A stretch of DNA of 64,000 bases, taken from assembly GCA_963726745.1 (NCBI GenBank), contig CAVSDR010000003.1, forward strand, positions 160,001-224,000, in the 5' to 3' direction. The notes beneath the pieces are model-generated. The model had not been told where the DNA came from, did no database searches, and saw only the letters and a list, made by a program, of their open reading frames with translations. This DNA comes from an uncultured Verrucomicrobiae bacterium (lineage in GTDB: Bacteria; Verrucomicrobiota; Verrucomicrobiia; Chthoniobacterales; UBA10450). This document shows, one piece after another, positions 1-63,308 of this stretch; the stretch's first letter is position 1, and every line of letters starts with the position of its first letter. Position numbers and translations under genes: made by a program.

Positions 1-478
1 GCAGGAGCGCCGCCGCCTCGATCTCGGTGCGGCCTTTCAATTTGTAGCCGCCTTCCTCGCGCACGCTTTGCGGCAGCATCCCGATGTGCGCCATGAAGGG
101 AATGCCCGCGCGCACGATTGCCTCGATCTGCGGGACGTGATTCGTCCCGCCCTCGAGCTTTACTCCCTGCGCACCCGCGGCCACCAAGGCTCGCGCCGTC
201 GCCACCGCCTGCTCCGGCGTGTCATAGGTGTGGATCGGCAGGTCGGCCACGAGGAAGGCGCGCTTCACCGCCCGCGCGGCGGCGCGCGTGTGATGGAGCA
301 TTTCCGCGAGGGTCACCTCGGTCGTGTCCTCGTAGCCGAGCACGACCATGCCTAACGAGTCGCCGACCAGGATGAGGTCGATCCCCGCTTCGTCGAGCAG
401 CCGCGCGGTCGGGTAATCGTAGGCCGTCAGGGCCGTGATTCGCTCGCCGCGCAGCTTCTTCTGGCGAAAATCTTCCAT
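1..478 (-). CDS. panB: 3-methyl-2-oxobutanoate hydroxymethyltransferase (3' end runs off window)
   Basis: Manual translation: MEDFRQKKLRGERITALTAYDYPTARLLDEAGIDLILVGDSLGMVVLG...GVKLEGG...AHIGMLPQ, typical PanB motifs. Confidence 0.95.
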   Translation of the reverse strand, partial: MEDFRQKKLRGERITALTAYDYPTARLLDEAGIDLILVGDSLGMVVLGYEDTTEVTLAEMLHHTRAAARAVKRAFLVADLPIHTYDTPEQAVATARALVAAGAQGVKLEGGTNHVPQIEAIVRAGIPFMAHIGMLPQSVREEGGYKLKGRTEIEAAALL

Positions 479-489
479 CGCCCGGAAGG

Positions 490-984
490 CTACCACCGGG
501 AAGCGACCCGCACCAATCCCTCTGTCGCCGGCAATTGCGCGAGCAACTGCGCGACTGTGCGCGCCTGTCCCGGCAGGATCAGCTCCGGACGAATCTCCGC
601 CAGCGGCGCGAGCACGAATCGGCGCGCGGTCATGCGCGGATGCGGCAACTCCAGCGTCTCCGTGTGGATGATCTCGCTGTCTAAATAAAGCAGGTCGAGA
701 TCGAGCGTGCGCGGGGCGTTCTTCGGGTGCTCCGGCGCGCGTCCCGCCGCCGCCTCGAACTCGCGCAGTTTAGCCAGCAACTCGAGCGCCTCTCCGGCCC
801 ACTCCAGCTCGACCACCGCGTTGAGGAATTTCGGGTCGTCCGGCGCGCACTCCACCGGCTCGGTCTCATAAATTGCGGAAGCCAGGACTGGCTCCCTAAC
901 GAGTCGTGCCAGCGCCGCCTTCGCGGCCGACAGGTGCGCCCGGCGGTCTCCCAGGTTCGAGCCGAGGGCAATGCCCGCCCTCAT
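490..984 (-). CDS. folK: 2-amino-4-hydroxy-6-hydroxymethyldihydropteridine diphosphokinase
   Basis: IALGSNLGD, FLNAVV, PRTLDLDLL, LPHPRM..RRFVLAPL; ATGA overlap with dapB stop. Confidence 0.95.
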   Translation of the reverse strand: MRAGIALGSNLGDRRAHLSAAKAALARLVREPVLASAIYETEPVECAPDDPKFLNAVVELEWAGEALELLAKLREFEAAAGRAPEHPKNAPRTLDLDLLYLDSEIIHTETLELPHPRMTARRFVLAPLAEIRPELILPGQARTVAQLLAQLPATEGLVRVASRW

Positions 985-1676
985 GAGAGGCCGAGCACGT
1001 CCTCCATCGAGTAAAGCCCGGGCGGCTTCCCCATGAGCCATTGCGCGGCGCGCAGCGCCCCGGCGGCGAAAGTGTCGCGGCTCGCGGCCTGGTGCATGAG
1101 CTCCAGGCGTTCGCCGGCCCCGGCAAAAATCACCGTGTGCTCGCCCACCACATCGCCACCACGCAGCGCGTGCATCCCGATCTGCCGGGCGGGCCGTTCG
1201 CCGGTCATCCCTTCGCGCCCGTGGACCACGTCCCGCTCGTAATCGAGCCCGCGCGCTTCACACAAAATTTCCGCCAACCGCCGGGCCGTGCCGCTGGGCG
1301 CATCCTTCTTCAGCCGATGGTGCATCTCCACCACCTCGAGCTCGAATTCGCTGCCTAACAACTCCGCCGCGCGCCGCGTGAGCGCGAAGAGCGCGTTCAC
1401 CCCGATGCTGAAATTAGCCGACAAGATCACCGGCAGACGCTCGGCCGCAGCCGCGATCTTATCCCGCTCCGCCTGCGCCTGCCCAGTGGTGCCGATGACC
1501 ACCGGCTTCCCGTGCGCCAGGGTGCTGGCGGTCGCGTTCGCGTGGCTGAAATCGATGATCACGTCACAGCGCTCGAGATCGGCAATCTCCACTTCCGGCA
1601 TCGTCCCGGCGAGGTGCACGATCGCCTGCCCCATCCGGCCGCCCGCGCCGACCAAGCCGATCTGCAGCGCGCTCAT
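981..1676 (-). CDS. dapB: 4-hydroxy-tetrahydrodipicolinate reductase
   Basis: GAGGRMG, VIGTTG, EMHHRLKKDAPSGTA; start at 1676 overlaps dapA stop (ATGA). Confidence 0.95.
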   Translation of the reverse strand: MSALQIGLVGAGGRMGQAIVHLAGTMPEVEIADLERCDVIIDFSHANATASTLAHGKPVVIGTTGQAQAERDKIAAAAERLPVILSANFSIGVNALFALTRRAAELLGSEFELEVVEMHHRLKKDAPSGTARRLAEILCEARGLDYERDVVHGREGMTGERPARQIGMHALRGGDVVGEHTVIFAGAGERLELMHQAASRDTFAAGALRAAQWLMGKPPGLYSMEDVLGLS

Positions 1677-2554: not shown

Positions 2555-2558
2555 CTCG

Positions 2559-3368: not shown

Positions 3369-3431
3369 GGTGGTCCTCCTCTAGCATGCGGAGCGCGCCC
3401 CGTCATCCGGAGGGCGCTTAAGACACCGCGC

Positions 3432-4222: not shown

Positions 4223-4261
4223 TCCGCGCACCTTTCTCCGAAAACCGCCCGCTGCAAAACG

Positions 4262-4909
4262 ATGACTCCCGCGACCTTGCTCAATGGCTTCGTGCTCGGT
4301 TGGTCGGTGGCCTGGCCGCCGGGACCGATCAACGCCGAGATGATCCGACGCGGGTTGGTCCCGAAAGCGCGCGGCGGCGGCTTCTGGGCCGCGTGGCCGA
4401 TCGCGCTTGGCGCCTGCACCGGCGATTTCCTCTGGGCGTTTTGCGTCTCGTTAGGCGCAGGCGCGATTCTGAACTCGCTGGCTATTCGCCGCACCCTCGC
4501 GGTCGTGAGCTTGTCGCTTCTTCTCTTCCTGGCGACCAAGTTTGCCCTGGCTGCGTGGCAGATTTACCAGACCCATCGCGCGGCCGAACCGGGCGTTTTC
4601 GGCGAGGAAAAGCGGACGCGCGGCGGCTATTTCCTGGGGCTGCTGGTGGTCCTGACCAGTCCGTGGAACGTCGGCTTCTGGCTCGCGGTCATCGGTTCGC
4701 AGACGAACCTGGCGCACGGCGTGCGGGAGTCGCTCGCGCTCGCCGCGTCGGTGGTCTTGGGCGCGTTTGTTTGGGGCGTGGTGCTTTGCACCGCGGTGCA
4801 ACTCGGCGCGCGCATCTTCGCCCGGCCCGCCTGGCAGATCGGCACCCAGGCGCTGACCGCGGTGGTCATGCTTTGGTTTGCCGCGCGGTTGCTCCTGAAC
4901 TTTCCGTAA
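4262..4909 (+). CDS. LysE/RhtB family amino-acid exporter
   Basis: PPGPINA, GACTGD, LTSPWNVGFW; about 6 hydrophobic helices. Confidence 0.85.
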   Translation: MTPATLLNGFVLGWSVAWPPGPINAEMIRRGLVPKARGGGFWAAWPIALGACTGDFLWAFCVSLGAGAILNSLAIRRTLAVVSLSLLLFLATKFALAAWQIYQTHRAAEPGVFGEEKRTRGGYFLGLLVVLTSPWNVGFWLAVIGSQTNLAHGVRESLALAASVVLGAFVWGVVLCTAVQLGARIFARPAWQIGTQALTAVVMLWFAARLLLNFP

Positions 4910-4919
4910 ACGCCCGGCG

Positions 4920-5801
4920 CTAGTGTTTCGGCGCGCGGACAGTGCCGGTCTCGATCGCGCTTCGGCGCTGGGCCACGATGCGGTTGGCGGTTTCCTCGAC
5001 CATCTGCTCGAGGAGCATGCGCAAGTGCGTCCCGCGGCGATAATCTGCCGGCGCCATGTGGCGCACGCGATCCGCATGAGTCGCGAGCTGGAAACATTTC
5101 TTGAAGCCGGCCCGCGCCGGGTCGTCCGGATTATAGACCGCGATCGCTTCGCCGCCGTTCTTCCGCATGACCGTGAAGCACGGGACGTCGGTCGGGCCGT
5201 CGCCCAGGTAAATCATGTTCGGGAACGGAATCGGCCGAATGTCCGGGTCCATGTGATCGTTTACATCCTCGCTCATTTCGAGCAGGCCCTTGTTGATCCG
5301 GAAAAGATACTGCGTCTTCTGCGTGTGACTGATCACGCGCTTCGGGAAGGTGATCCGGCCCTCCCGGTCCTCGGCAAATTCGCAGCCGAAAATCGCGCGC
5401 ACATACGGCGCCAGGCGGCTGCCCTCGATCAAAATCTTCATCCCGGAGGAGATGATGTAATGCTCCACGTTGATCCCGTGGCTGCGGTGTTCCTCGGTCA
5501 GGAGCGTGCTGGCAAAATCATCGAACATCTCCGGCAACCCTTGGTAGAAATTCAATTTGCCGCCTAACGACTTGAGCTCGGCGTTGGTCGGCCGGTCCAT
5601 CCCGAGCGTGTCCAGCAGCACCTTCATGTAGGCCAGCTCGCTATCGTAGCCTTCCTCGCGCACGAATTCGCTGCAGCGCCGCCAGAAGCTGTCCTTGTTG
5701 ATCCCGAAGGCGGGGAAGACCACCTCGTCCTGCATGTAGCTCGGGCTGAGCGTTTGGTCGTAGTCGTAGACGATCGCGATCGTGTTTTGCGGAGTGGCCA
5801 T
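4920..5801 (-). CDS. HAD-like hydrolase
   Basis: DYDQTL motif I, ISSG motif II, YLGDGPTD motif IV. Confidence 0.85.
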   Translation of the reverse strand: MATPQNTIAIVYDYDQTLSPSYMQDEVVFPAFGINKDSFWRRCSEFVREEGYDSELAYMKVLLDTLGMDRPTNAELKSLGGKLNFYQGLPEMFDDFASTLLTEEHRSHGINVEHYIISSGMKILIEGSRLAPYVRAIFGCEFAEDREGRITFPKRVISHTQKTQYLFRINKGLLEMSEDVNDHMDPDIRPIPFPNMIYLGDGPTDVPCFTVMRKNGGEAIAVYNPDDPARAGFKKCFQLATHADRVRHMAPADYRRGTHLRMLLEQMVEETANRIVAQRRSAIETGTVRAPKH

Positions 5802-5807
5802 GGCTGG

Positions 5808-6437
5808 TTAACGAGTCTGCAGCTGCGCCACGAAATCGGCAAAAAGCGTCTCGTAGCCGGGACTGCGCTCGGGATGATACTGCACCCCGACGACAAAAGG
5901 ATGACTCGTTAGGCGAACCTGCTCGATGATGTCGTCGTCTGCGCTCCAGGCCTCGACCACCAGCCCGTCGCCCAGGCGATCGATCGCCTGGTGATGCGCG
6001 CTGTTCACTTTTTCAAAGCGATGCCGCGCGGCGCGTTCCGTGCGCAGCGGCTGCACGTTCTCGTCGCGCTGCTCCGGCGCGTTGTGGCCGGGAATGTCGA
6101 GGCGCAGGGTGCCGTCGAGAGCGACGTTCAAAAGCTGGTGGCCTTTGCAAATGGCCAGGATCGGCAGGTCGTGCTCGAGCGCATATTTCGCGGCCGCAAA
6201 TTCCCAGGCATCGCGCACCGGATCGACATCCGTGTCGAGCACCGAAGGATCGGGGATCTCCTGGCGCAGGAATTCCGCCGAGACATCCGGGCCGCCGGTG
6301 AGGAGCAGGCCGTCCATCTCTTCCAACGGCACCGCGCGCTCCGCGGCGTTCCAAAATTCCACCTCCGGATGCGCGGCAAAGGCGCGTTGGAACGGCGGGA
6401 CATCCTTCGGCCGAATCCAGGAAGCCACTTTCAACAT
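5808..6437 (-). CDS. class I glutamine amidotransferase, peptidase C26 / gamma-glutamyl-GABA hydrolase family
   Basis: LLLTGGPD, AICKGHQLLNV, NSAHHQAI, GVQYHPE. Confidence 0.9.
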   Translation of the reverse strand: MLKVASWIRPKDVPPFQRAFAAHPEVEFWNAAERAVPLEEMDGLLLTGGPDVSAEFLRQEIPDPSVLDTDVDPVRDAWEFAAAKYALEHDLPILAICKGHQLLNVALDGTLRLDIPGHNAPEQRDENVQPLRTERAARHRFEKVNSAHHQAIDRLGDGLVVEAWSADDDIIEQVRLTSHPFVVGVQYHPERSPGYETLFADFVAQLQTR

Positions 6438-6530
6438 CGCGAAGTGTGGGGTCCTTCCGGAGAGTTGTAAACTCGACCGCGAGCGCTCAGCGCAAGGCCG
6501 GCAAGCGAGAGCCAGCCGTTTCTAAGGACG

Positions 6531-8225
6531 ATGAAACGTTTGCTTCTGCTCGGCCTGGCAGCGGTTTCTTTGCAGCTGAACGCGGCGGCGAAAACGGAGA
6601 AGCCAGCGCCACGCGTCGAGATGACCGTGCCGGAGATCCGCGATGCCTTGCAGCAACACCAGTTCTCGATCGAGCGCCTCACGCGTTTCTACCTCGACCG
6701 CATCGCGGCCTATGACGATGCCGGGCCAAAAATCAACGCCGTGCTTGCGCTCAACCCTGCGGCGCTCGATCAAGCGCGCGCGCTTGACCGGCAGCGCGCT
6801 CAAAAAACGCGGCCGCCGCTTTTTGGCGTGCCGATCTTGCTCAAAGACAACATCGACACCGCCGACCTGCCGACCACTGCGGGCAGCGTCGCCCTGCGCG
6901 ATTCCCGGCCACCAGACGACGCTTTCATCGTGCAACGCCTCCGCGCGGCGGGCGCGATCGTCCTCGGAAAAGCGACGCTGACCGAGTGGGCCAACTTCCT
7001 CGCGCCAAACACCCCCGCGGGCTACAGCTCGCTGGCTGGTTTCAGCTTCAATCCCTACGACCCGCGGCCGGACTCGCGCAGCGAGGCGCCGTTCAACGAC
7101 GGGCGCCCGGTGCTCCCGACCGGCGGCTCCAGTTCCGGCCCGGCGCTGGCGGTGAACGCGAACTTGGCCGCGGTTGCGATCGGCACAGAGACCGATGGCT
7201 CGATCCTGAGCCCGGCGAACGCCAACGGCGTGGTCGGAATCAAACCAACGCTTGGCCTGGTGAGCCGGGACGGCATCATCCCGATCACCGCCGATCAGGA
7301 TACTGCCGGCCCGATCACGCGCACGGTGACCGACGCGGCGATCGTCCTCGGTGTGATCGCGGGCCACGACCCGAAAGACCCGGCGACAGATGTTTGCCTA
7401 ACGAAAGGTCGCTGCCTGACGGATTACACCCGCTTCCTCGATCGGAAAGCACTGCGCGGCGCGCGGCTGGCGGTTTACACTCCGCGCACGCCGCTGCCGG
7501 CGAATCGCCAGGGACTCCTCGACGCCGCCGTGGCCGATCTTGAAAAGCAGGGCGCCACCGTGCGGCGCCTGGCCGCGGAAGACATTCCGGTTCAGGCCGA
7601 CTCTTGCACCACCTACCCCCTGCCCGCGGTGCCGGAGCCACCGGCGATCCCGTGCTCCTCGGTCCTCCTTTACGGTTTCCGGCGTGATCTTGATACCTAC
7701 TTGGCGAACACGCCCGGCGCACCGCGGCGGAACTTGCAGGAAGTGGTCGCCTTCAATGCAGAGCAAGTCCCGCCTTTGAAATACGGACAAGGCATCGCGG
7801 AAGCGGCGAGCCAGCTGGACCTCGCGCCGGAAAGCGCCGACACGCGGCGTTACCAGCAGGATCGCGCGCGCGATCTCGCGCGTTCGCGCGACGCGCTCAA
7901 CGCGATTTACTACGGGCCGGACGGCCAGCCAGGGACCGAGGACGACACGGATGCAATCATCGCCGTGGGCAACACCTTCAGCACCGCGCCCGCCAAGGCC
8001 GGCTTCCCGAGCGTGACCGTGCCCGGTGGCTTCATCACCGCCGGCCCGAAAGATCCGCCGATTGCGGGGCCCTACCCGCAGACGATCACCTTTTCCGGTC
8101 CGGCCTTCTCGGAACCGAAGCTGATCGCGCTCGCCTACGCTTACGAGCAGGCGACGCAACACCGACGGCCGCCCGCGAGCACGCCGGCTCTCACTGCGGA
8201 CGGCGCGAAGACTAAAGCCCCATGA
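6531..8225 (+). CDS. secreted amidase-signature family enzyme
   Basis: Signal peptide; LKDNIDT, GGSSSG, GTETDGSI (Ser-cisSer-Lys triad). Confidence 0.92.
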   Translation: MKRLLLLGLAAVSLQLNAAAKTEKPAPRVEMTVPEIRDALQQHQFSIERLTRFYLDRIAAYDDAGPKINAVLALNPAALDQARALDRQRAQKTRPPLFGVPILLKDNIDTADLPTTAGSVALRDSRPPDDAFIVQRLRAAGAIVLGKATLTEWANFLAPNTPAGYSSLAGFSFNPYDPRPDSRSEAPFNDGRPVLPTGGSSSGPALAVNANLAAVAIGTETDGSILSPANANGVVGIKPTLGLVSRDGIIPITADQDTAGPITRTVTDAAIVLGVIAGHDPKDPATDVCLTKGRCLTDYTRFLDRKALRGARLAVYTPRTPLPANRQGLLDAAVADLEKQGATVRRLAAEDIPVQADSCTTYPLPAVPEPPAIPCSSVLLYGFRRDLDTYLANTPGAPRRNLQEVVAFNAEQVPPLKYGQGIAEAASQLDLAPESADTRRYQQDRARDLARSRDALNAIYYGPDGQPGTEDDTDAIIAVGNTFSTAPAKAGFPSVTVPGGFITAGPKDPPIAGPYPQTITFSGPAFSEPKLIALAYAYEQATQHRRPPASTPALTADGAKTKAP

Positions 8226-9939
8226 GCTCGCGGACGTATTTCGCCGGCGGGCTGCCGAAGCTCAGGACTTCGTCGTTGTATTTCTTCAGGTCGAATTTTT
8301 CGCCCCGCTTCTTCTGCGCCGCGTTTCGCAGGTCAAGGTGCTCGGTGACGCCGACGAAGTAGGTTGAGAGCTGGGTCGAGGAGAGGCGGGCGCGTTTCCA
8401 TTTGGCCACGGCTTCGCCTTCCTGCTGAAAACCCTCCTTCATCATCAAGTCGAGCGCTTCCTGCTCGCTCATGTTCGCGGTGTGGATCCCCTGGTCGAGG
8501 ATGGCGTTGCAGATCACCCGCAGCCGCATTTTCAGCTGCTGCATCTTCACTTCCGGCCCGCCGTAGCCGGCCTCGGCCATGAATTGTTCCGAGTAAACCG
8601 CCCAGCCCTCGATGAAGCTCCCGCTTTGGAAAATCGCGCGCACCATCGTGGGCGCGCGGAACTTGTTCGAGTGCGCCAACTGCAGGAAATGCCCGGGCAT
8701 GGCCTCGTGCACCGTCAGGTCGCGCATCATGTAGTTGTTATACTCGCGAAAGAACGAGTCCTTCCGCTCCTGCGACCAGCCTGGCGGCGTCGGCTCGATC
8801 GCGAAGAAGGTGGCGCCGTTTTTCTCCAGCGGCCCGGGCGAATCGCAATAGGCGATCCCCTGCCCGCGTTTGAACTCCGGCATGACGATGATCTCGAGCG
8901 GCTCGTCGTAGACCGTGACCAGGTCCTTCTTTTTGGTGAACTCCGTCGCCTCGCGCAGGACCTTCTGCGCGTAGCCGACGATGGTCTCGTCGTTCGGGTG
9001 TTCCTCCGCGAGCTTGTCCAGCACCGCGGTCGTGACCTTGCGCTTGTCGCCTAACGACTCCTTGTCCGCCTGCGGGAAATACTTCCGGTAAAGCGGGAGC
9101 GCGGTCTGGTAGATCGCCGTCTGCGTGGCCGCGAGATCGGCCCGGGCTCGCTTCATGATCTCCTCCATCGACAAATCGGAGGCGAGCGCGAAGTGCAGCT
9201 TTTGCCGGAACTTCTCCGCGCCCAGGCGGAAGTCGCCATCGCTCCGCGGGAGCAGATCGGTCTCGAGCCACTTCTTGTATTCTTCCAAAGCGCTGGCTGT
9301 TTTCTCCTGCAACGGGGCCAGCTCCGCCTTCATCTCCGGCGCCTGGCTGAGCACCGGCTCCAGCCCTTCGCGCACGAAACTGATCGCGCCCTGCATCTGC
9401 TCGATCGCGGTCTCGGTGTAGATCTTCGGCGAATGCTGCAGATTCGCTTTCGCCTGCGCGATCACCGCGGGAATTCCTTCCATGCGCGCGCGCAAATTTG
9501 GGATGCGCTCCTTCGCCGGCGCGAAGTCGCGCGCGATCAATAGATAGAGGCTGTTGACCAGGCTCTGGTTGTAAACCAGCGGGTTCCACTCGGCCTCGCG
9601 CAGGACCTCGAGGCTGAAGATTTCGCCCTCGACGTTCTCTTTCAGGATGCGGAAGTCGACGTTGTTCGCACCCGTGAGCGCCTTCGGATTTTCGAAGCCG
9701 TTTAATTTAGCCAGCACTTCCTTCTGACGCGCAAGCTCGGCCGCGCGGGCATCATCCGAATAGTCGCTCAGTTTGCTGTCAAAACGGTGGTCGCCGAGGC
9801 CGGTCGCTTCCTCGGGGTGCGCGCGCAAGCGCTCCTCGAGGTAATTCGCGGCCAGTTTCTGGAATTGTTCATCCGCCGGAGCGGCCTGGGCGACCAGCGG
9901 CGCGGCCAGACTAACGAGGGCAAGCAGGGCGAGCTTCAT
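8212..9939 (-). CDS. DUF885 family secreted protein
   Basis: Signal peptide; HEAMPGHFLQ, FIEGWAVYSE, QLSTYFVG. Confidence 0.9.
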   Translation of the reverse strand: MKLALLALVSLAAPLVAQAAPADEQFQKLAANYLEERLRAHPEEATGLGDHRFDSKLSDYSDDARAAELARQKEVLAKLNGFENPKALTGANNVDFRILKENVEGEIFSLEVLREAEWNPLVYNQSLVNSLYLLIARDFAPAKERIPNLRARMEGIPAVIAQAKANLQHSPKIYTETAIEQMQGAISFVREGLEPVLSQAPEMKAELAPLQEKTASALEEYKKWLETDLLPRSDGDFRLGAEKFRQKLHFALASDLSMEEIMKRARADLAATQTAIYQTALPLYRKYFPQADKESLGDKRKVTTAVLDKLAEEHPNDETIVGYAQKVLREATEFTKKKDLVTVYDEPLEIIVMPEFKRGQGIAYCDSPGPLEKNGATFFAIEPTPPGWSQERKDSFFREYNNYMMRDLTVHEAMPGHFLQLAHSNKFRAPTMVRAIFQSGSFIEGWAVYSEQFMAEAGYGGPEVKMQQLKMRLRVICNAILDQGIHTANMSEQEALDLMMKEGFQQEGEAVAKWKRARLSSTQLSTYFVGVTEHLDLRNAAQKKRGEKFDLKKYNDEVLSFGSPPAKYVRELMGL

Positions 9940-9945
9940 GGGCCC

Positions 9946-9974
9946 ACGCTACGCAGGGGCGCGCGCTTGGACAA
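9946..9974 (-). promoter_or_regulatory. sigma70-like promoter directly ahead of the DUF885 start (leaderless type)
   Basis: TTGTCC-17 nt-TAGCGT-6 nt-ATG on the minus strand. Confidence 0.6.
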
Positions 9975-26357: not shown

Positions 26358-26578
26358 CAACTCGCTGGCTGTTTTGCCCAGATCGATTCTCAGTCCGGCC
26401 AGTCCGCCGCCTGATTTGGCCAAAGCGCCCGCAGCCTGGCCAACTCGTTGGCTAATTTGGGCAACCTGAGCGATCCCTCGGGCAAAGGAGCCGACGCTTT
26501 GGCAAGGCGATCCCCCTCAATGCGGGGGCAAGCATGCGCGGATTTCGGCGCAGGATAGGCTTGGGTTTGGTTCTGTCG

Positions 26579-44487: not shown

Positions 44488-44623
44488 GTGCCTATGAGTT
44501 CGTGCCGGCATCCGCCGAGGGCGGCACGATTATCGGAAATTCGCGCGCGGTGCCTAGCATCGGCAGAACGCCGGAGTTGTCCAGCGCGAGCACGCCGGAC
44601 GGTTCGACCCGCAGGACGACTCG

Positions 44624-45058
44624 TTAGGGAACGAGGAAGATTTTCCCGGTGTAGGGATCCTTCACTTCCGTGCCCGGAGCGTAGCCGCGCACGTCGGTCA
44701 TCTTGTCGGGTGAAAACGGGCTGCGGACAAAGCCGGGCTTCCCAGGAACCGGAATGGCGTAGGGATAATCACCCTTCGCCGTCGTCTGCGTGGCCGGCTG
44801 GCTTGGAGGATTATTTGACGGCGCCGAGACAGCTTCGGTCGTGGTGCTCTCGTGCAGCGCCGGCGCAGAGCCGGTCGTCGTGGTCGTGGTCGTTACGCCA
44901 TCTTCGGCGAACGGCTGGGGCTGCGCAGGATATTGCGTCTGCTGCGGGGTGGGATATTTCGCGACCGGGCGGCGAACATTCCGCCGGGGCGGCTCATCGA
45001 TTTCGCAGGAGGTGAGGGCAAAAGCCGCGAGCAGACCGATCGAGAGCGCAAGTTTCAT
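44624..45058 (-). CDS. hypothetical lipoprotein
   Basis: ALTSC lipobox, disordered linker, compact C-terminal PVPGKPGFVRSP..DVRG..GTEVKDPYTGKIFLVP. Confidence 0.8.
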   Translation of the reverse strand: MKLALSIGLLAAFALTSCEIDEPPRRNVRRPVAKYPTPQQTQYPAQPQPFAEDGVTTTTTTTGSAPALHESTTTEAVSAPSNNPPSQPATQTTAKGDYPYAIPVPGKPGFVRSPFSPDKMTDVRGYAPGTEVKDPYTGKIFLVP

Positions 45059-47296: not shown

Positions 47297-47313
47297 CGCC
47301 TAACGAGTGCTTC

Positions 47314-55394: not shown

Positions 55395-56094
55395 TCAAGT
55401 CTTCTCCAGCCAGATCGCCTGGCGCGCCCAGCGGAATTTCCCCGCGCCAAAACTTCCGCCAGCCGGCCTTCTCCGCGAGCGCGCGGAGCTCCGCAAAGCT
55501 AAACGCCCGCGCCGCGGAAACGCGGCCATCTTCCCGCGTCATCCGGTCGCGAAAGATCAGGGCCGTTAGCAAATAAACGCCCACGTGCGCGAGCCAGCCG
55601 CGCCGAAGATCCGTCACCAGGACAAAGTGCCGGCTAATTTCCCGACATCTTCGCAGGAGCGCGACCGCGTCCTCGTCGCTGAAGTGGTGCAGCGCGAGCG
55701 AGCAGATCACCAGGTCGAAGGAGCCCTTCGCGCCAAACGTCAGCACATCCGCCTGCTCGCAGGTGATCTCCGGATAATCGCCGCTTAAGGCCTGCGCGGT
55801 CGCGAGCGTTCGTGGCTGGAAATCGACCGCTACGATCTCGACCTCGGCTCCGACCTGGCGTGCAAAATCCGCCACCAGCCGCGGAATATCGGCCGAGCCT
55901 GTCGCCAGATCCGCCACCCGCCAGCGATCCCCCGGCCGCAGCCAGCGGCGGAGAAATTTCTCCACCATCCGGTGGCTGCCGAACCAGCGATTGAGCGCGC
56001 GCAGGCTCCGGAGCGCGGCCGCCAATTCCGCCGCGGAGGCGTCCGGCCGGTCCATCAATTCCGGCTCCCCGGAGGCAAACTCCCGCCGGCTCAT
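55395..56094 (-). CDS. class I SAM-dependent methyltransferase (probable +1 frameshift at ~55450)
   Basis: ELMD, DLATGSAD, SLALHHF, DLRR; alternative-frame end ARQAIWLEKT* stops 2 nt before the panC ATG. Confidence 0.85.
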
Positions 56095-56102
56095 CTTGCT
56101 GC

Positions 56103-56849
56103 CTAACGAGCGAGAAAACGGCTCCACGATTCCGGCAGCGGCGCGCTTTCCACCTCGGCCGCGATCCGGCCTTCGAACTCCGGGTGAAAGGAAACGCTCG
56201 TCCCGTAAACCATGATCAGATCTTCCGAGCCTTCCGCGCGCAGCGCATGCGCCACGCCTGCGGGAATGACCACGCCGCAGTTGTTCGGACCGCGATGGTT
56301 GTCGCCCTCGATCAGGAAACGCATCGTCCGCGGCGGCAGGCCCGCGCGCGCCTCCTGCAGGATCATCTCCGCGTTTCCCTGCACGAAAAACATCACGTCC
56401 CACTGCTCCCGATCGTAGGGACGCGCCGCAAAATCTTCCGGCGCGCGCACGAAGAGTTCCTCGAACCATTGCGCTGCCTCTTTCCCTTCCGGGATGTGCG
56501 GCGGATGCACATGGAAGCCTTTTGCGGTCTGGGCAAACATCCGCGCGGTGGCCCACTGCGCCGGCCAAAAGCCGATCTTCGCCAGCAACCCTTCGTCGCG
56601 CCGCGCAAACTCCCCGAAGAAGCCGCGATGCCGCTGCGGATAAATCGCGCGCGCGAAAAGCTCCACCCCGGGAATCCAGGCCGCGCGCACTTCCGGCGTG
56701 TTCCGGTCCGCGGCCAGGAGCTTTCCAGCCTCGATCCCGGCGCCGCCGAGTTGCTCGGCCAGGCTGCCGCTGGCGTAGTCCCGCGTGGCCAGGGCGGCGC
56801 GCGCCTCCGCGGAGAGACCGGCCCAAAGGTTGTCGTCTGTTTTTTTCAT
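56103..56849 (-). CDS. RmlC-like cupin (dTDP-4-dehydrorhamnose 3,5-epimerase related)
   Basis: HRGFFGE, KGFHVH, IPAGVAHAL. Confidence 0.7.
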   Translation of the reverse strand: MKKTDDNLWAGLSAEARAALATRDYASGSLAEQLGGAGIEAGKLLAADRNTPEVRAAWIPGVELFARAIYPQRHRGFFGEFARRDEGLLAKIGFWPAQWATARMFAQTAKGFHVHPPHIPEGKEAAQWFEELFVRAPEDFAARPYDREQWDVMFFVQGNAEMILQEARAGLPPRTMRFLIEGDNHRGPNNCGVVIPAGVAHALRAEGSEDLIMVYGTSVSFHPEFEGRIAAEVESAPLPESWSRFLAR

Positions 56850-56856: not shown

Positions 56857-59289
56857 TCATCTGCCTAACGAGAAATCCGCCTGCTCGCGAGAAAGATTTG
56901 GATTGTAGTAGGGATCGCATGCGATCACCTCCGCCCAGCGCTCGCGCATCACCTCGGTCTCGCGCGCTTCCACGCTCCGCCGGCGCGTGGCCGACTCGTG
57001 ATGATAAAGCTTGGCGAAGGGCGTGTAGACCACCAGGTAACCCGCGCGCCAGAGCTTCAAACACAGGTCGACATCGTTGAAGGTCACGGGCAGGCGCGCT
57101 TCATCGAACCCGCCGACCGCCTCGAAGACTTCCCGCCGCGTGAGCAGGCACGCGCCCGTGACCGCGCAATAATTCCGCGTCACCTGAAGTTGCCGGCAAA
57201 CTCCCGGCTCCTCCGCGCCAAAGCCGCGAAAAGCATGCTGCGCGATTCCGCCCACGCCCAGGACCACGCCGGCATGCTGGATGGTCTCGTCCGGGTAAAG
57301 CAGGCGCGCGCCAACTGCGCCCACCTCGGGACGCTGGACATGCTGGACCATCGCATGGAGCCACTCGCCCTCGATCACCTCGACGTCGTTGTTCAGGAAA
57401 AGCAGCCACGGGCAATCCGTCTGCTCGACCGCGAAATTGTTGATCGCGGAAAAGTTAAAGGGCCCCGGGTAACGCAGGACGCGGTGCGGGGTGCGCGCGA
57501 AATACTCCTGCGCTTCGGCGGTGACGCTGTCGTTATCCACCAGCACGATCTCGTAGTTCTCGTAGCTGGTCTTCTCGACCACGCTTTCGACGCAGCGCGC
57601 CAGCAGCTCGATCTGGTCGCGCACCGGGATGATGATGCAAACCTTGCGCGCCTCGCGCACGTCGCGCTTCACCCGGTAGGCATGCGTGGGCCAGTCGACC
57701 GTCACGTGTCCGGCTACGCCAGTGCGCTGGAGATGTTCCTCGATTGCTTTCTTCCCGGCTTCGAGCGCGAGCGGCTTCCGCCGGATGTTATCCGAGGTCG
57801 AGGAAGCGCTCCGTCGCCAGTGGTAAAGCACCCGCGGGAGATGATGGATGCGCTGCGTCCGCTCCGTCACCCGCAGGAGCAAATCGTAATCCTGCGCGCC
57901 ATCGAACTCCGGCCGGAAGCCCCCCACTTCTTCGATCAAACGCCGCCGCAGCACCGTCAGGTGCACGATGTAGTTGTAGGAGAGAAAAAAATCCGGCGAC
58001 CAATCCGGCTTGAAGATCGGCGCCTCCGGTCCTTGCTCGGTCAGCTTGTCTTCATCGGAATAGACCAGGTCGATCTCCGGGTTTTCCGCGAGCGCCTGGA
58101 CCACGCGGAAAAGCGCATCCGGCTCGAGCAGGTCGTCATGGTCCAGGAGCGCGATCCACTCACCCTGCGCGAGCGCGAGCCCGCGATTCGAAGCCACGGA
58201 AATTCCCCCACCCGCGGGCAGTCGCTCGTGCCGAATGCGAGCGTCGCGCGCGGCGATCTGCGGCAGCGCCGCGATCGTTTGCTCGTTCGTCGAGCCGTCG
58301 TCAATCAAGAGCAACTCCCAGTTTTCGTAGGCCTGCGCGCGGACCGATTCCACCGCCGCCTCGAGCCACTCGACCGGCGTGTTGAAGACCGGAGTGAGAA
58401 TGCTGATCGTCGGCGCGCAGGCAAACTTCGCCGCTTCCGCGCGCATTTGCGCGAGCGCTTGCGCGGTCGGCTGCTGGCGTTGCAGCCACGCTTGATATGC
58501 ACTGGCGCTCGCCGTCTCAGTTTCCCGGCGGCGCGGCTTTGGCGGCGCATCGCCCTGGAGGCGTTTGCGCACTTCGCGGAAGAGCTTTTGCGGCAGTCGA
58601 TAGGGCGCAAGGATCACCTGGCCGACCTTGCGCTCGGGACATTTCCGCAGCGCCTGCTTCTCCTGCTTCAGCTGGCGGACGGTTTTCTTGGCCTCCTTCA
58701 AGGCGAGCACTTTTTCCTCCAGCTTCGCGATGTGGCGATCGGCCGCTTCCAGCTCCGACATCCGCGTGCGCAAGGTCCGCTCGAGCGCCCGCTGGCGCTG
58801 GCTGGCGCGCGCAATCGCCTGCTCGACCGAGGCGATCGCGGCGGAGCCATCGGCTTCCGGCCGCCGCACCAGCAAGAGCGCGCCCGCCTCGAACTCGCTC
58901 ACGTCGAAATCGTAATCCGGGACGAAGCCGAGCCGCTGGAATTGCTCGACCAAAGACGGCCGCTGGCGCGCGACCTCGGCCGCCGGGCCGGGGACGAGCA
59001 CGATGGTTTGCGCGGCGGCGGCCAGCGCGCGCACCGCCGCCTCCTCGCTCCCGACGTTCTTCGGGTAAAGCCAGATGAGAATGTCGGCTAACGAGTGGTG
59101 TCGGTTCTCCGGGAGGGCCTGGCGCAGGTCTGCCGGCTCCGCAAAGGTGGGCAGGCCCGCGAGGGGAATCTCCCCCGCTTCCGCCGGCCAGCCGACGACC
59201 GCAAGCCGCGCGCTCCCGAACTTGCCCGCGAGGAGACGCGCGAAATCCGAGCGGAGCGAATGACTCGGCGGCTGCAGCACGGGGGACAT
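56857..59289 (-). CDS. glycosyltransferase with N-terminal domain, coiled coil and two GT2 domains
   Basis: ILTPVFN..IDDGS..LDHDD; IIIPVRD..VDNDS..LNNDVE..NDVDLCL. Confidence 0.92.
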   Translation of the reverse strand: MSPVLQPPSHSLRSDFARLLAGKFGSARLAVVGWPAEAGEIPLAGLPTFAEPADLRQALPENRHHSLADILIWLYPKNVGSEEAAVRALAAAAQTIVLVPGPAAEVARQRPSLVEQFQRLGFVPDYDFDVSEFEAGALLLVRRPEADGSAAIASVEQAIARASQRQRALERTLRTRMSELEAADRHIAKLEEKVLALKEAKKTVRQLKQEKQALRKCPERKVGQVILAPYRLPQKLFREVRKRLQGDAPPKPRRRETETASASAYQAWLQRQQPTAQALAQMRAEAAKFACAPTISILTPVFNTPVEWLEAAVESVRAQAYENWELLLIDDGSTNEQTIAALPQIAARDARIRHERLPAGGGISVASNRGLALAQGEWIALLDHDDLLEPDALFRVVQALAENPEIDLVYSDEDKLTEQGPEAPIFKPDWSPDFFLSYNYIVHLTVLRRRLIEEVGGFRPEFDGAQDYDLLLRVTERTQRIHHLPRVLYHWRRSASSTSDNIRRKPLALEAGKKAIEEHLQRTGVAGHVTVDWPTHAYRVKRDVREARKVCIIIPVRDQIELLARCVESVVEKTSYENYEIVLVDNDSVTAEAQEYFARTPHRVLRYPGPFNFSAINNFAVEQTDCPWLLFLNNDVEVIEGEWLHAMVQHVQRPEVGAVGARLLYPDETIQHAGVVLGVGGIAQHAFRGFGAEEPGVCRQLQVTRNYCAVTGACLLTRREVFEAVGGFDEARLPVTFNDVDLCLKLWRAGYLVVYTPFAKLYHHESATRRRSVEARETEVMRERWAEVIACDPYYNPNLSREQADFSLGR

Positions 59290-59359: not shown

Positions 59360-61240
59360 ATGCTCGACCTCGGCATCTACCTTTTCTACCGGCTCGTGAC
59401 CGGTCTCGTGAGCGCGCTCCCCCTGCGGTTTCTCTTCTCGTTAGGCCAATTCCTCGGCCTGCTCGCCTGGTTCGTCTCGGGGAAATATCGCCGCCTGGCG
59501 CAGCGCAATCTCCGCATCGCATTCCCTGCGGAAACAGCCGGCAACTTGCGCGCGCTCAGCCGCCAGCATTTCCAGCGTCTGGGCGCGAACCTCCTCTGCA
59601 GCGTCAAGCTCGGGACCATGCCGCTCGCGGAAGTCGCGGAGCGCGTCACCCTGGAAAATGCCGACGCTTTGCACGCGCCGCTGCGCGCCGGCCGCGGCGT
59701 CGTCCTGGCCCTGAGTCACTTCGGGAGCTGGGAACTTTTCGCGCAAATCTTTACCCACCACTTCGGCTACGCGCCCATCAGCACCGTCTTCCAGCCGCTC
59801 GCGAACCAGCGGATCGACGCCGATGTGCGGCAAAAGCGCAGCCGCTCCGGCGCGATCTTGTTCGACCGGCGCGACGGTTTCCAGAAGCCGATGGAATTGC
59901 TCCGGCGCGGCGGTTTGGTCGGCGTCCTTTGCGATCAACACGCCGGCGACCAGGGCCTTTGGACGCCGTTTTTCGGCCGGCTCGCTTCGACCACACCGCT
60001 GCCGGGATTGCTCGCGCGACGCACCGGCGCGGCCGTGATCGTGGCCGCGATTTACACCGAGACGCCGGGACGGTGGCGCATGGTTTTTGCGCCGCCGCTA
60101 AATGACGCCGGCGACTCCGTGGAGGCGATCACCGCAAAGGCGAATGCCGCGGTCGCGGAGCAAATCCGGCGCGCGCCGGCGGATTGGTTTTGGGTGCACA
60201 ATCGCTGGAAAACGCCGCGGCCAAATTTCCTCCTCGCGCGCTACAAACGCGGCGTCTATTTGCCGGCAGATTCTCCCGCGGAAACGTTGCAACCCTTCCG
60301 CATTCTGGTGCGCGCGAGCAACTGGCTGGGCGATTGCATCATCAGCGCGCCCGCGGTGCGCGCGCTCAAGCGCGGCCGTCCCGATGCCCACGTGACCGTA
60401 GCCGTGCCGGCCAAACTTGCGCCGGTCTGGCGGCTCATCCCGGAGGTCGACGAAGTCCTGCCGTTGCCCTCGAAAAGTTTGTGGGAAACGCGCCGGCTTT
60501 TCGCGCGGCAAAAGCCGTTCGACGTGGCCGTCTTGCTGCCAAATTCCCTCCGCGTCGCGCTCGAGGCCTGGGGCATTCCGCGCGTGGTCGGCTTCCGCGG
60601 GCACCGGCGCGCCTGGCTGCTCGACCAGATCGTCCCGCCGCGCGTGGTCGCCGGGCCGATCGAGCACCAGGTGCGGCATTACCTCCATCTGGCGCGCGAT
60701 CTCGGCGCGAAAACAGACAGCGCTTTGGATGCCAGGCCGCGCCGCCTAACGAGTGGTCGCCGGCTGGGCCTTTGTCCGGGCGCGGAATACGGCCCGGCGA
60801 AGCGCTGGCTCCCGGAGCGTTTCGCAGAAGTGGCGGCGGCTTTCCCGGATCGAGAGTGGATCCTTTTCGGCACCGAGAAGGACGCCAGGGCGGGCGCAGA
60901 AATAGCCAGCACTTTGGGCGCGCGCGCCGTCAACCGCATCGGCCAGACGACGCTCGAGGAGCTGATCGCGGAGCTGCAAGAATGCCGGCTCTTATTGACG
61001 AACGACACCGGCACGATGCATCTCGCGACGCTGCTCGGCGTGCCCGTGGTCGCGATTTTCGGCTCGACCGAGGACCGGCTCACCGGTCCGCTCGGCCCCG
61101 GAAATCTCGTCGTGCGCCATCACGTCGCCTGCAGCCCTTGTTTCCTGCGCGAGTGCCCGATCGATTTTCGCTGTATGACCGAGGTGACCGCGGAGGAAGT
61201 GATCGCCGCGGTGCGCGCGCAGCTCGCACTCCCGGAGTAA
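59360..61240 (+). CDS. lipid A secondary acyltransferase (LpxL-like) fused to heptosyltransferase II (WaaF-like, GT9)
   Basis: HFGSWE, CDQHAG, WFWVHNRWK; NWLGD, CPGAEYGPAKRW, TNDTGTMHLA, CSPCFLRECP. Confidence 0.92.
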   Translation: MLDLGIYLFYRLVTGLVSALPLRFLFSLGQFLGLLAWFVSGKYRRLAQRNLRIAFPAETAGNLRALSRQHFQRLGANLLCSVKLGTMPLAEVAERVTLENADALHAPLRAGRGVVLALSHFGSWELFAQIFTHHFGYAPISTVFQPLANQRIDADVRQKRSRSGAILFDRRDGFQKPMELLRRGGLVGVLCDQHAGDQGLWTPFFGRLASTTPLPGLLARRTGAAVIVAAIYTETPGRWRMVFAPPLNDAGDSVEAITAKANAAVAEQIRRAPADWFWVHNRWKTPRPNFLLARYKRGVYLPADSPAETLQPFRILVRASNWLGDCIISAPAVRALKRGRPDAHVTVAVPAKLAPVWRLIPEVDEVLPLPSKSLWETRRLFARQKPFDVAVLLPNSLRVALEAWGIPRVVGFRGHRRAWLLDQIVPPRVVAGPIEHQVRHYLHLARDLGAKTDSALDARPRRLTSGRRLGLCPGAEYGPAKRWLPERFAEVAAAFPDREWILFGTEKDARAGAEIASTLGARAVNRIGQTTLEELIAELQECRLLLTNDTGTMHLATLLGVPVVAIFGSTEDRLTGPLGPGNLVVRHHVACSPCFLRECPIDFRCMTEVTAEEVIAAVRAQLALPE

Positions 61241-61241
61241 G

Positions 61242-61661
61242 ATGGAGGCGATGAAGTCCGAGACGCCGCGCATTCGCACCGAGGTGCAGGTGATGTTTTT
61301 CGACACCGACTGCGCGGCCGTGGTGCACAACATCGCCTACCTGCGTTTCATCGAGACTGCGCGCACCTTGCTCGCGGAGCAGCTCGGGCTCGAGCTCGTG
61401 CAGATGGGCGAGGAGAAAAAATATCCGGTGGTTGTGCGCACCGAAATTGATTACCGCCGCCCCGCGAAATTAGGCGACAAGCTGGTGGTCGAAGGCTGGC
61501 TCGACCGGATGGAGCGGGTGCGCTTCTGGTGCGGCTTCCGCATCACCCGCCCGGCGGACGAGACGCTGATCGTCGAGTGCCGGCAAAGCCTGGCGATCGT
61601 CGAAATGCCCTCGGCGAAACTCCTGCGCCTCCCGGAGGATTGGGAAAAATTCCGCGCCTAA
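61242..61661 (+). CDS. acyl-CoA thioesterase (4HBT/YbgC family)
   Basis: DTDCAAVVHNIAYLRFIE, IDYRRPAKLGD. Confidence 0.9.
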   Translation: MEAMKSETPRIRTEVQVMFFDTDCAAVVHNIAYLRFIETARTLLAEQLGLELVQMGEEKKYPVVVRTEIDYRRPAKLGDKLVVEGWLDRMERVRFWCGFRITRPADETLIVECRQSLAIVEMPSAKLLRLPEDWEKFRA

Positions 61662-61667
61662 CGAACG

Positions 61668-63308
61668 ATGGCCGCCGGCGCCCACACCTTTGCCTTGGGA
61701 GAAACGCTCCTGGAGCCGCAGGTGCTCCCGCCGCCGCCCACGCGGCACGCGCTCCTGGCTTTCCTGCTCGCGCTCGCTGCCATTCTTCATCTCGGCACCG
61801 CTGGCTGGAGCGAAATTCACAACGGCCCCGAGGGCTATTACGCAGGCGCGGCCCGGGAATTGATCGCGCACCCGGCGGAGGCCGGCAGACTCCCACATGA
61901 TCCCCCGCTCCTGCTTTGGCTGCTGCTGGGTTCGCTGAAAACCTTTGGGCTCTCGGCGATGGCTGCGCGGGTGCCGATCGCACTCGCGAGCATCAGCGCG
62001 GTCGCCTTCACTTTTCTTATCGGCGAACGGCTGGCGGATTACTGGCGCGGCTTTCTCGCCGGGCTGCTGCATCTTTGCTCGTTAGGCATGTTCGTCTGGG
62101 GGCGGCTGGTCGCGCCCGAGCCGCTCTTCGCCGCAATTCTCGGCGCGGCGCTCTTCTGCGCGGTCTGCGGCTACCAACGGCAACGCCGGCGGCAATGGTG
62201 GTTCACTGGAGTCTGGCTCTGCGCTGGTCTCGCCGGGCTGGCGAAAGGTCCGGCTGGGCCGCTCTACCTGGGCGCGATCCTGCTGCTGCTCGCGCTTCCT
62301 TTTCGCGAAGCGCGGTTGCGTTTTCGCCAAATCTTCCGCTGGCCCGGCCTGCTGCTTTTCGCCGCTCTGCTGGCGGCCTGGCCGCTGTGGCTACGCTGGA
62401 TGTCGGTCGAGACGCCGGGCGTCTGGTTCCTCCCCTTCGCGGTCAATTTCCGCGAGCCGCAGGCCTTGCGGCTGGCGCGCTTCCTCGCGACTCATCTCGT
62501 CTGGTGGTTTCCGGCGTGGACGCTCATCCTGCCGGGTCTGCTTTTCGCGTGGAGGAAAATTATCCGGCCACATGAGTTCGGCTTCGCCGAGGCGTTGCCG
62601 CTCGTCTGGATGGCAGTCGGCTTCGTCCCGTTCCTTTTTCTCCCGGCGCGCAACGAATACCATTCCGTCGCGATGTGGAGCGGGCTCGCGCTCTGGGCCG
62701 CGTGCGCCTGGGAGCGCATGCCGCCGCGGCTGCGGACCGCCGGCCTGGCGATGACCGCGGCCGGCGCGCTCTTCATGGTCGCGGCCACTTTTGGGAAATG
62801 GCTTCCGCGCTTGCTGCCGGCGCCCGCGTGGGAGCCAGCGCTTTGGGTGGTCGCGTCCATGGCGGCAATCCTGTGCGCAGCTGTGGCGGTGGCGGCGTTT
62901 TTCGTGCACCGGCAACGGGATACCCTCGCGCTCACGATCGTGCTCCTGGCGGTCGCGCCGGCGGGCTTGAGCATCGCCGAGGCGATGGTGCGCTTTGAGC
63001 CGGAGCTTTCCTTCGCGAGCGCGGTTCGCTTTCTCGAACCGCGCCTGGGCGAACGCGGCGAGGTGCTTTTCGAGGGCAACGCCCGTAGCGGCAGCAGCCT
63101 GCGTTTTTATCTCGATCGGCCATTCACCCTCGTGGCCCCGGCGACGACCGCGCAAGCCCTCGAGCGCATGCGCGCGCCGCATCCGGTTTACCTGATCGTG
63201 GAGAAATCGCGGCTGGTCCTGTGGCAGGCGCGTTTAACCAGCGAGTTCCACGTTTTCCACCAGGAACACACCTGCGGGCGGCACGTGATTCTGAGCAATC
63301 AGCCCTGA
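61668..63308 (+). CDS. ArnT/PMT-like (GT-C) membrane glycosyltransferase
   Basis: EGYYAGAARE, PPLLLW, LAKGPAG; multi-TM. Confidence 0.8.
   Translation: MAAGAHTFALGETLLEPQVLPPPPTRHALLAFLLALAAILHLGTAGWSEIHNGPEGYYAGAARELIAHPAEAGRLPHDPPLLLWLLLGSLKTFGLSAMAARVPIALASISAVAFTFLIGERLADYWRGFLAGLLHLCSLGMFVWGRLVAPEPLFAAILGAALFCAVCGYQRQRRRQWWFTGVWLCAGLAGLAKGPAGPLYLGAILLLLALPFREARLRFRQIFRWPGLLLFAALLAAWPLWLRWMSVETPGVWFLPFAVNFREPQALRLARFLATHLVWWFPAWTLILPGLLFAWRKIIRPHEFGFAEALPLVWMAVGFVPFLFLPARNEYHSVAMWSGLALWAACAWERMPPRLRTAGLAMTAAGALFMVAATFGKWLPRLLPAPAWEPALWVVASMAAILCAAVAVAAFFVHRQRDTLALTIVLLAVAPAGLSIAEAMVRFEPELSFASAVRFLEPRLGERGEVLFEGNARSGSSLRFYLDRPFTLVAPATTAQALERMRAPHPVYLIVEKSRLVLWQARLTSEFHVFHQEHTCGRHVILSNQP

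Follow-up and report, generated by a model that had tools for sequence, protein, structure and literature searches.

What keeps a short, non-palindromic word in place, over and over, along the chromosome of an uncultured soil bacterium? The question is raised by a 64,000-nt stretch of an uncultured Verrucomicrobiae bacterium of the order Chthoniobacterales (hereafter the window), which corresponds to C3:160001–224000 of the source genome G000 (3,406,779 bp in 7 contigs, GC ~0.64, 94.7% complete). An earlier note, made from the letters of the window, had singled out the 8-mer CCTAACGA and its extended 10-mer form GCCTAACGAG as over-represented. Using comparison genomes, which carry the other G numbers below, we found that the word is a real, strong and ancient feature. 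Its statistics resemble, in each statistical test that could be applied, those of the DNA uptake sequences (DUS) of Neisseriaceae and the uptake signal sequences (USS) of Pasteurellaceae, and its invariant part, CTAACGAG, also forms the ends of the integron sites of the same clade. We tentatively read the word as a DUS/USS-like transfer signal, an explanation in which we place somewhat less than even confidence.

Exact copies of CCTAACGA number 30 in the window, 19 on the plus strand and 11 on the minus strand, against a mononucleotide expectation of 1.37. Across 100 dinucleotide shuffles of the window, the 8-mer averaged 0.77 copies with a maximum of 3, and 0 of 100 reached 30; the window has 17 copies of the full GCCTAACGAG, whereas its shuffles average 0.07 and never hold more than 1. 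The base before the 8-mer is G in 26 of 30 copies and C in 4, and the base after it is G in 21, C in 7 and A in 2, making G or C in 28 of 30. Copies with one mismatch to the 8-mer amount to 21 in all. The recount reproduced the earlier note closely: the same 30 copies (19 plus, 11 minus) at the same coordinates, the same 17 full 10-mers, the same counts of G before and of G or C after, and an expectation that the note had put at about 1.3, while the 11 one-mismatch copies that it listed are all at the positions given and form part of the 21.

The enrichment extends over the whole genome, in which the 8-mer is present in 1514 copies (790 plus, 724 minus) and the 10-mer in 820 (445 and 375) in 3.41 Mb. 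GCCTAACGAG is the most frequent 10-mer of G000, with GCGCGCGCGC next at 634 copies. After masking of the words, an order-3 Markov model predicts 2.99 copies of the 10-mer, giving a 274-fold excess; with an unmasked order-4 model the 10-mer is still in 34-fold and the 8-mer in 10-fold excess, and a maximal-order model is uninformative for the 10-mer. The earlier note had let its proposal depend on enrichment elsewhere, which is found here genome-wide and, as described below, in relatives as well.

The spectrum of one-off variants refines the word to G-N-CTAAC-R-A-V, with CGTTAGGC as its core and GCCTAACGAG as the commonest form, so that the counts given in the earlier note stand and its fixed form does not. 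Position 2 accepts any base (C 820, G 166, A 81, T 54), position 8 is A in 93 copies and position 10 is G in 820, C in 237 and A in 226, T being rare (29). The 17 one-off variants that hit CTAAC or A9 are depleted (76 copies observed, 124 expected). Around the word, flank information is present only at −1 (G 0.87), +8 (G 0.63), +9 (T 0.44) and +12 (A/T 0.70). Because the information is confined to −1 to +12, the word does not belong to a longer element, which upholds the earlier view that the flanks are unrelated and that neither an insertion sequence (IS) nor a repetitive extragenic palindromic (REP) element is involved. Genome-wide, bare copies (those outside integron sites) show neither the conserved flanks nor the paired inverted copies of a REP element, a miniature inverted-repeat transposable element or an IS.

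Genes were called with a simple codon-likelihood caller of open reading frames (ORFs), which returned 2554 genes at 82.6% coding; the calls are approximate and the frame counts derived from them carry some error. The non-coding 17% of the genome holds 467 of the 1514 copies (31%). Within genes, the 8-mer uses sense frame 0 (229 copies), sense frame 2 (268), antisense frame 0 (450) and antisense frame 1 (100), and the two frames that are unused are those in which it would contain TAA or TAG. The frames that are used depend on the rarest leucine and arginine codons, TTA, CTA and AGG (2849, 1476 and 1270 in all coding sequences). Coding sequences contain 1047 8-mers and 603 10-mers; 20 synonymous within-gene shuffles gave means of 42.4 (maximum 56) and 8.25 (maximum 16), respectively, and 20 codon shuffles gave 18.8 (maximum 28) and 2.6 (maximum 5). 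The excess thus outlasts the codon nulls under which, in the earlier note, a spurious signal should have disappeared. The word is a DNA-level signal, and not a codon product, a protein motif or a repeat element. That the excess is spurious, arising from chance, composition, codon use, a repeated protein motif or a dispersed repeat element, has next to no probability in our view; the one point in favor of this is the GC-rich composition, which makes A/T-containing words rare. The shuffles and Markov models exclude chance and composition, the use of four frames together with intergenic copies excludes a protein motif, and flank conservation is nil beyond −1 and +8 to +12, with 17 of 1293 CTAACGAG copies lying in the cassette sites (attC) of integrons.

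Copies are evenly spread at ~20–25 per 50 kb on all contigs. In 129 bins of 25 kb, their orientation followed neither GC skew (Spearman rho −0.09, p 0.31; the GC skew is weak and the genome is in 7 contigs, so subtle polarity is possible) nor gene strand (rho 0.11, p 0.23). No orientation bias like that of Chi or of the FtsK-orienting polar sequences (KOPS) was found in G000, which bears out the earlier judgement that the weak strand bias fits KOPS less well; the Chi-like partial polarity that had been left open is not seen in the G000 bins. Short gaps are scarce, those of at most 200 bp making up 3.6% of gaps compared with 8.6% for random placement, and only 21 pairs lie less than 100 bp apart, in all four orientations. 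The largest word desert, C7:60030–95400 of G000 (35 kb, GC 0.593), is an O-antigen-type surface-polysaccharide cluster whose genes, almost all on the same strand, include those for Wzz, Wzy, Wzt and many glycosyltransferases. Exchangeable surface islands of this kind lack DUS in Neisseria.

In uncultured Chthoniobacterales, the word is old and present family-wide, at very variable density. All 24 sampled congeners (G001 and G008 being unpublished) lie above a reversed-word control, unevenly, with 51 to 1549 copies against controls of 10–60, and G002 is barely above it (51 versus 40). Fifteen other families of the order, represented by 16 genomes, showed no excess (0–14 copies per genome). A survey of the family covered 121 genomes of 30 genera at a completeness of at least 80%, in which the 10-mer was compared with its reversed-word control: the ratio is at least tenfold in 30 genomes, at least fivefold in 52 and below twofold in 17. 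At least one genome reaches fivefold or more in 18 of the 30 genera, and the genera g37 (10/10 genomes), g30 (5/5) and g18 (5/5) are uniformly rich. Strand totals over the 121 genomes are 16216 forward and 16237 reverse.

Individual sites are also retained. Positions 1–60000 of the window were aligned to five congeners, all at 75–76% nucleotide identity. Among the word-rich congeners, the word sites were intact at 5 of 14 places in G007, 8 of 15 in G010, 10 of 18 in G013 and 12 of 19 in G024; pooled, this is 35 of 66 (53%), compared with 13.7–15.6% of all 8-mers in the same alignments. In the word-poor G002 (96% complete), 2 of 19 were intact at a background of 13.5%. Sites belonging to one lineage number ~10 in G013, 7 in G024, 5 in G010 and 3 in G000, and by hand reading of the alignment table G000 retains 11 of the 17 sites that are common to at least two other rich genomes. 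Orthologous word sites differ by substitutions, not insertions. Taken at the level of the alignments, this conservation looks like selection or a biased drive acting on the word, which would have been switched off in G002. A replacement dialect in G002 was considered and rejected, the other over-represented words in a 254-kb sample of that genome being tandem heptamers and one polar coding motif. The sample contains tandem heptamer runs with the units TTCCGCA and GGAAGTA, as well as a strand-biased TTGCCGTCCG motif.

The single-word picture of the earlier note gave way at one point, as G000 holds a second hyper-abundant word that had been missed. It has the form A-N4-GYYGGCTAA, typically CAAnTCGCTGGCTAATTT, and occurs in 928 copies (477 forward, 451 reverse) where the reversed control has 47, lying in several frames as well as in intergenic DNA; summed over any base at the variable place, there are 1594 copies. 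The second word has G-N-CTAA in common with the first, without the AAC triplet. Its distribution is patchy: 22 of 24 congeners do not exceed their control, the other two, G011 (124 versus 43) and G015 (88 versus 37), showing a mild excess, and among the 121 family genomes it is rich only in G000 and in G051, an unpublished genome of another genus that is poor in the first word and has 531 copies versus 36. Positions 1–20000 of the window contain 8 second-word sites (any base at the variable place), 7 of them alignable. At 5 of these 7, no aligned relative has CTAA, and CGAG, CCAG or CGAA is found instead; at site 1345, GCCTAA is common to G002 only, and site 5554, the exception, overlaps a copy of the first word. 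From these alignments, the second word is derived in the G000 lineage, often via two-step synonymous changes to the leucine codon TTA. Its patchy occurrence and fast rise argue for a reader that is swappable or can be acquired.

Where else the first word occurs is seen in G028, a member of another family without genome-wide excess. Its few copies are clustered and head elements of 100–150 nt that begin with GCCTAACGAG, end with GGTTAGGC and repeat every 400–900 bp in one direction, a pattern by which they can be assigned as integron attC sites. The cassette arrays are located at contig ends of G028 (C7:93629–97732 and C21:53993–56421) and hold most of its copies. The integron consensus given in PMC12901181 is RYYYAAC for the R'' box and GTTRRRY for R', with crossover after the first base of R', and the same source gives GCCTAAC as the R'' box of attC(aadB); the wild-type attI1 oligonucleotide in Table 3 of PMC2811028 holds the same heptamer, GCCTAAC/GTTAGGC. 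The GCCTAAC/GTTAGGC within our word fits this canonical R''/R' box. The earlier note set the word apart from the known dispersed words, and no published description of it was found; what the note missed is that this heptamer is the canonical integron box and that CTAACGAG is the attC/attI end of the clade. Literature on uptake sequences in Verrucomicrobia or Chthoniobacterales, and on GTTAGGC in these taxa, did not describe the word (subscription journals are thinly covered), and among publications containing the exact GCCTAACGAG the matches listed were unrelated, mostly primer or gene-expression studies.

Of the 121 family genomes, 78 have an integron integrase (IntI), taken as a TIGR02249 match over cut-off, whereas none of 14 control genomes does. 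Five genomes, each from a different genus, were examined over the 20 kb adjoining intI; sites there follow one another on the same strand at intervals of 400–600 bp and start with [AG][CT]CTAACGAG; the attI-side site nearest intI starts likewise in 5/5 genomes, and the attC arrays of G000 and six other genomes begin with RY-CTAACGAG (R, purine; Y, pyrimidine). CTAACGAG is thus invariant at the attC and attI ends of the clade's integrons. In the word-poor G065, which has 9 10-mers genome-wide, the array beside intI holds 12 one-strand 8-mers in 20 kb. The integrase gene of G002 is split in two pieces. With a profile built from 53 sites (ungapped arm identity and a strict fold-energy cut had missed most sites), 24 attC sites were found in G000. 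Seventeen form a one-orientation array at C6:736275–744893 with ~500 bp spacing, a cassette array of the CALIN type (cluster of attC sites lacking integrases); small clusters of 1–2 sites each are located at C4:24532–25437, C4:150072–151067, C3:633143–634739 and C2:58979–59085, the last adjoining a weak integrase-like fragment (C2:58736–58894, E 1.5e-4). No integron integrase was found in the G000 assembly, the best TIGR02249 score being 80 bits against a cut-off of 265, and as the genome is incomplete its loss is not proven.

That bare words and integron sites have the invariant CTAACGAG in common is far beyond chance, and the two classes obey different rules just upstream of it. At positions 1–2, the attC copies have GC in 7, AT in 7, AC in 2 and GT in 1, that is, RY in 17/17. 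The bare copies (n = 1276), which outnumber attC copies ~75 to 1, have GC in 813, GG in 166, CC in 99, GA in 81, GT in 53, AC in 28 and AT in 0, with 70% RY, and so fail the purine–pyrimidine rule of R''. Unlike attC elements, which are folding imperfect palindromes of about 60–150 nt (R''-L''...L'-R') in one-way arrays, they have no conserved flanks. As the rules at positions 1–2 differ, the bare words are read by something other than the att-site constraint; such a reader would recognize the G-headed subset of CTAACGAG sites.

Under the transfer-signal explanation, a sequence-specific reader, presumably a protein, would keep G-N-CTAAC-R-A-V in place in this family of soil Chthoniobacterales. 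A transfer step would favor word-bearing DNA, the model being uptake through a type IV pilus, ComEA and ComEC with uptake as the putative biased step, and homologous recombination would then spread word-bearing alleles. Spread of alleles would leave copies in genes and intergenic DNA alike, on either strand and in each usable frame, and let them persist at orthologous places. The specificity of the reader may have been seeded by, or aimed at, integron sites, and any order of appearance of bare word and integron site is proposed in the same conditional sense; transformation and cassette capture would thereby be coupled. Natural transformation has been linked experimentally to cassette recruitment in Vibrio in PMC8191803 and PMC12614218, and no precedent for an uptake-like word tied to integron sites was found in the literature. 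A more specific version, which we regard as distinctly unlikely, is that an uptake or transfer receptor is tuned to the integron cassette-site end and fishes cassette DNA from the soil pool, the thousands of bare words in housekeeping genes being a by-product on kin DNA and the specificity being swappable and, in G000, joined by a second, nearly private word that has G-N-CTAA in common with the first.

Genes that could serve such uptake are present. G000 encodes ComEC, DprA (its gene next to topA and ssb), a ComEA-like protein, three secretins, ten ATPases of the T2SSE family, PilB/PilT/PilC and ~18 pilin-like ORFs, three minor-pilin clusters among them. A row of genes at C3:153137–158639, shortly before the start of the window, encodes two MshE/PilB-type ATPases, a PilC-type platform protein and a pseudopilin. 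In G028, homologous ATPase genes adjoin one of its cassette arrays.

Several observations nevertheless weigh against uptake. Competence genes are near-universal and match in most control genomes; they discriminate weakly and do no more than permit this explanation. ComP is the DUS receptor of Neisseriaceae, and the ComP_DUS Pfam model scores 20–22 bits, versus a cut-off of 27.3, on one pilin of G000. No receptor was found among three candidates (the pilin matching ComP_DUS, a minor pilin encoded next to dprA and a protein of a pilus cluster), none of which follows the density of either word, with ~15 pilin-like ORFs left out. Word density forms a continuum from 1.3-fold to 44-fold within one genus and does not behave as a present-or-absent trait. 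The second word, strong in just two distant genomes of 121, requires a second or mobile reader. Inverted-pair terminators, as formed by the DUS of Neisseria, are missing, the inverted orientation not being preferred among the 21 close pairs.

The candidate readers were rejected individually as follows. The weak ComP_DUS match comes from the pilin at C3:432284, which is found at 46–58% identity in almost every congener, G002 among them. Orthologues of the minor pilin at C6:624015, at ~70% identity, are confined to G018, G015 and the word-poor G002, and none was found in G013. The cluster at C3:1026045–1034900, three minor-pilin genes with a gene for an 813-aa protein, lies in a word desert and has no DNA match in five relatives; the 813-aa protein is patchy in 9 other genera (42–54% identity), follows neither word and was not found in G051. 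Two pilin clusters of G000 have no high-identity DNA segment in common with G051.

Among other explanations, the likeliest is that the bare words are themselves integron-related, attI-core-like (attG-like) sites that are bound or used by IntI or a partner, for instance as landing or excision points of cassettes, their abundance stemming from integron biology and not from uptake. We consider this unlikely, if worth keeping in mind. The heptamer agrees with the published R'' and R' boxes (PMC12901181) and with attI1 (PMC2811028), CTAACGAG is invariant at the ends of the clade's sites, the copies of word-poor G065 are nearly all in the array beside intI, and 3 of the 5 attC clusters of G000 (C6 array counted) begin within ~600 bp of a correctly oriented bare word. 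IntI is also somewhat commoner in rich genomes, found by hand tally in 24 of 30 at tenfold or more versus 9 of 17 below twofold. Yet over the 121 family genomes its presence does not follow word density, by which the integrase was rejected as the driver: in the assemblies it is neither necessary nor sufficient, being unmatched in G000 (820 copies), G024 (1549), G089 (1338) and G077 (624) and present in G065, G082 and G146, although integrons assemble badly and such absences in draft genomes are soft. The bare words moreover break the RY rule, and AT-CTAACGAG, a co-dominant form of attC, accounts for 0 of 1276 of them. They come without a hairpin partner or conserved flanks, their orthologous sites change by substitution rather than insertion, and integrases are not known to convert near-sites into sites; sites inside genes would also invite harmful insertions. 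Finally, attG sites are said to diverge significantly from classical att sites in PMC12901181, which cites another paper for this point.

A site for some other chromosomal reader, either a nucleoid-organizing protein or a self mark that spares the cell's own DNA from a nuclease or defense system (Chi-like protection without polarity), seems to us quite improbable. It would account for the even spread on all contigs, the deficit of very short gaps, the scarcity of the word in a low-GC island, the positional conservation and a reader with flank rules of its own. It sits poorly with the polarity of known Chi and KOPS sites, which this word lacks, and with known nucleoid sites such as matS, parS and those of Noc and SlmA being few, palindromic or regional; an enrichment of 274-fold with rapid lineage-specific turnover is atypical of nucleoid sites, and the congener G002 lives without the word. 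Less probable again, to the point of being very unlikely, is a mutational or repair drive in which a sequence-specific methyltransferase or short-patch repair turns near-words into words, as has been discussed for the highly iterated palindrome HIP1 in cyanobacteria and for Vsr repair in Escherichia coli. The depletion of core one-off variants, the two-step movement of synonymous leucine codons to TTA at second-word sites in the G000 lineage and the patchiness of the second word, which in two distant genomes would fit a mobile enzyme, are consistent with such a drive. No single transition-type neighbor stands out among the variants, however, the word is non-palindromic, and known repair drives yield a few-fold excess only.

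The copies in the window illustrate the range of contexts; retention is given as the 8-mer at the aligned place in congeners G002, G007, G010, G013 and G024. Between genes, the full GCCTAACGAG is found at 351..358 (+; kept in G010, G013 and G024), 33297..33304 (−; 0/3 aligned relatives), 47299..47306 (+; 0/5) and 56102..56109 (+; the word of G013 is one alignment column off, at 56101), and the shorter word is found at 44621..44628 (−; kept in G013) and 61657..61664 (+). Sense frame 0 contains the full 10-mer at 11355..11362 (+) and 41000..41007 (−; kept in G010 and G024), and the word at 21569..21576, 22361..22368 and 23342..23349 (all +, with no relative aligned), 24105..24112 (+; kept in G013 and G024) and 44057..44064 (−; kept in G002, G010, G013 and G024). 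Full copies in sense frame 2 are at 5906..5913 (−; kept in G013 and G024), 14769..14776 (−; kept in G010) and 60745..60752 (+), accompanied by a word copy at 7397..7404 (+). Full 10-mers occupy antisense frame 0 at 4448..4455 (−; kept in G007), 13859..13866 (+; G010), 14468..14475 (+; G002, G010, G013 and G024), 30367..30374 (−), 40727..40734 (−; G007), 56864..56871 (+; G010, G013 and G024), 59438..59445 (−; G024) and 62079..62086 (−). Word copies in the same frame are at 5563..5570 (+; kept in G007, G013 and G024, not G002), 9050..9057 (+; G007 and G024) and 48422..48429 (+; G007, G010, G013 and G024), and those in antisense frame 1 are at 895..902 (+; 0/3 aligned relatives) and 43723..43730 (+; kept in G013 and G024).

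The second word lies on the minus strand at 1414..1427 and 13982..13995, CTAA being absent at each place in 4 aligned relatives, and on the plus strand at 26442..26455, 36902..36915, 37283..37296, 41030..41043, 55624..55637 and 59078..59091. A further repeat of G000 consists of CCAACG hexamer runs, with 158 copies of CCAACGCCAA genome-wide, nearly all in genes and mostly in one frame; these runs probably encode Pro-Thr linkers.

Sequence-specific DNA uptake is, to our knowledge, known from two proteobacterial families only. If the transfer-signal explanation is true, the word would be a third case, in an abundant uncultured soil phylum and in many genera, with natural 'off' lineages at equal divergence as controls, and would offer a new system for how uptake words arise, spread and change. 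A receptor tuned to integron ends would, if true, take uptake signals beyond Proteobacteria for the first time and be the first case in which uptake specificity is directly coupled to integrons. A word that is also an integron crossover end ties together two routes of gene exchange whose only connection so far is experimental and comes from Vibrio. In practice, the word could help to mark kin DNA, islands and cassette traffic in soil metagenomes.

Among known systems, HIP1, Chi and KOPS are likewise short words strongly over-represented chromosome-wide. HIP1 is palindromic, and Chi and KOPS are replication-polar and far less enriched; the present word is neither palindromic nor polar. With integron attC and attI sites, it has in common the canonical R'' box GCCTAAC and the CTAACGAG that is invariant at the site ends of the clade, including the 17-site array of G000, whereas the bare copies have no 100–125-nt hairpin or nearby integrase, are located in housekeeping genes on both strands and do not obey RY at positions 1–2. 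Like the DUS of Neisseriaceae, which occurs in dialects (as described in PMC3630211 and PMC2397512), it is the commonest 10-mer of its genome and a clade-wide word with tolerant positions, conserved with recombination-type turnover and scarce in foreign DNA. It differs from DUS in forming no inverted-pair terminators and in that the ComP_DUS model stays below cut-off; DUS drifted into clear dialects, whereas here the same word is found across genera of the family (18 of 30 with a genome at fivefold or more) and the second word is confined to single genomes. The likeness to the Pasteurellaceae USS, for which the minor pilin ComN/PpdA is the predicted receptor (PMC12616744), covers a non-palindromic 9–10-mer at about one copy per 2 kb, mostly intragenic in several frames and enriched between genes, with equal strands, fewer very close pairs than random, family-wide occurrence and a weak downstream signal, here T at +9 and A/T at +12. 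Compared with USS, this is another word in another phylum, a ~30-fold spread of density is seen within a genus, a second word is present in one genome, and the word coincides with the ends of integron sites.

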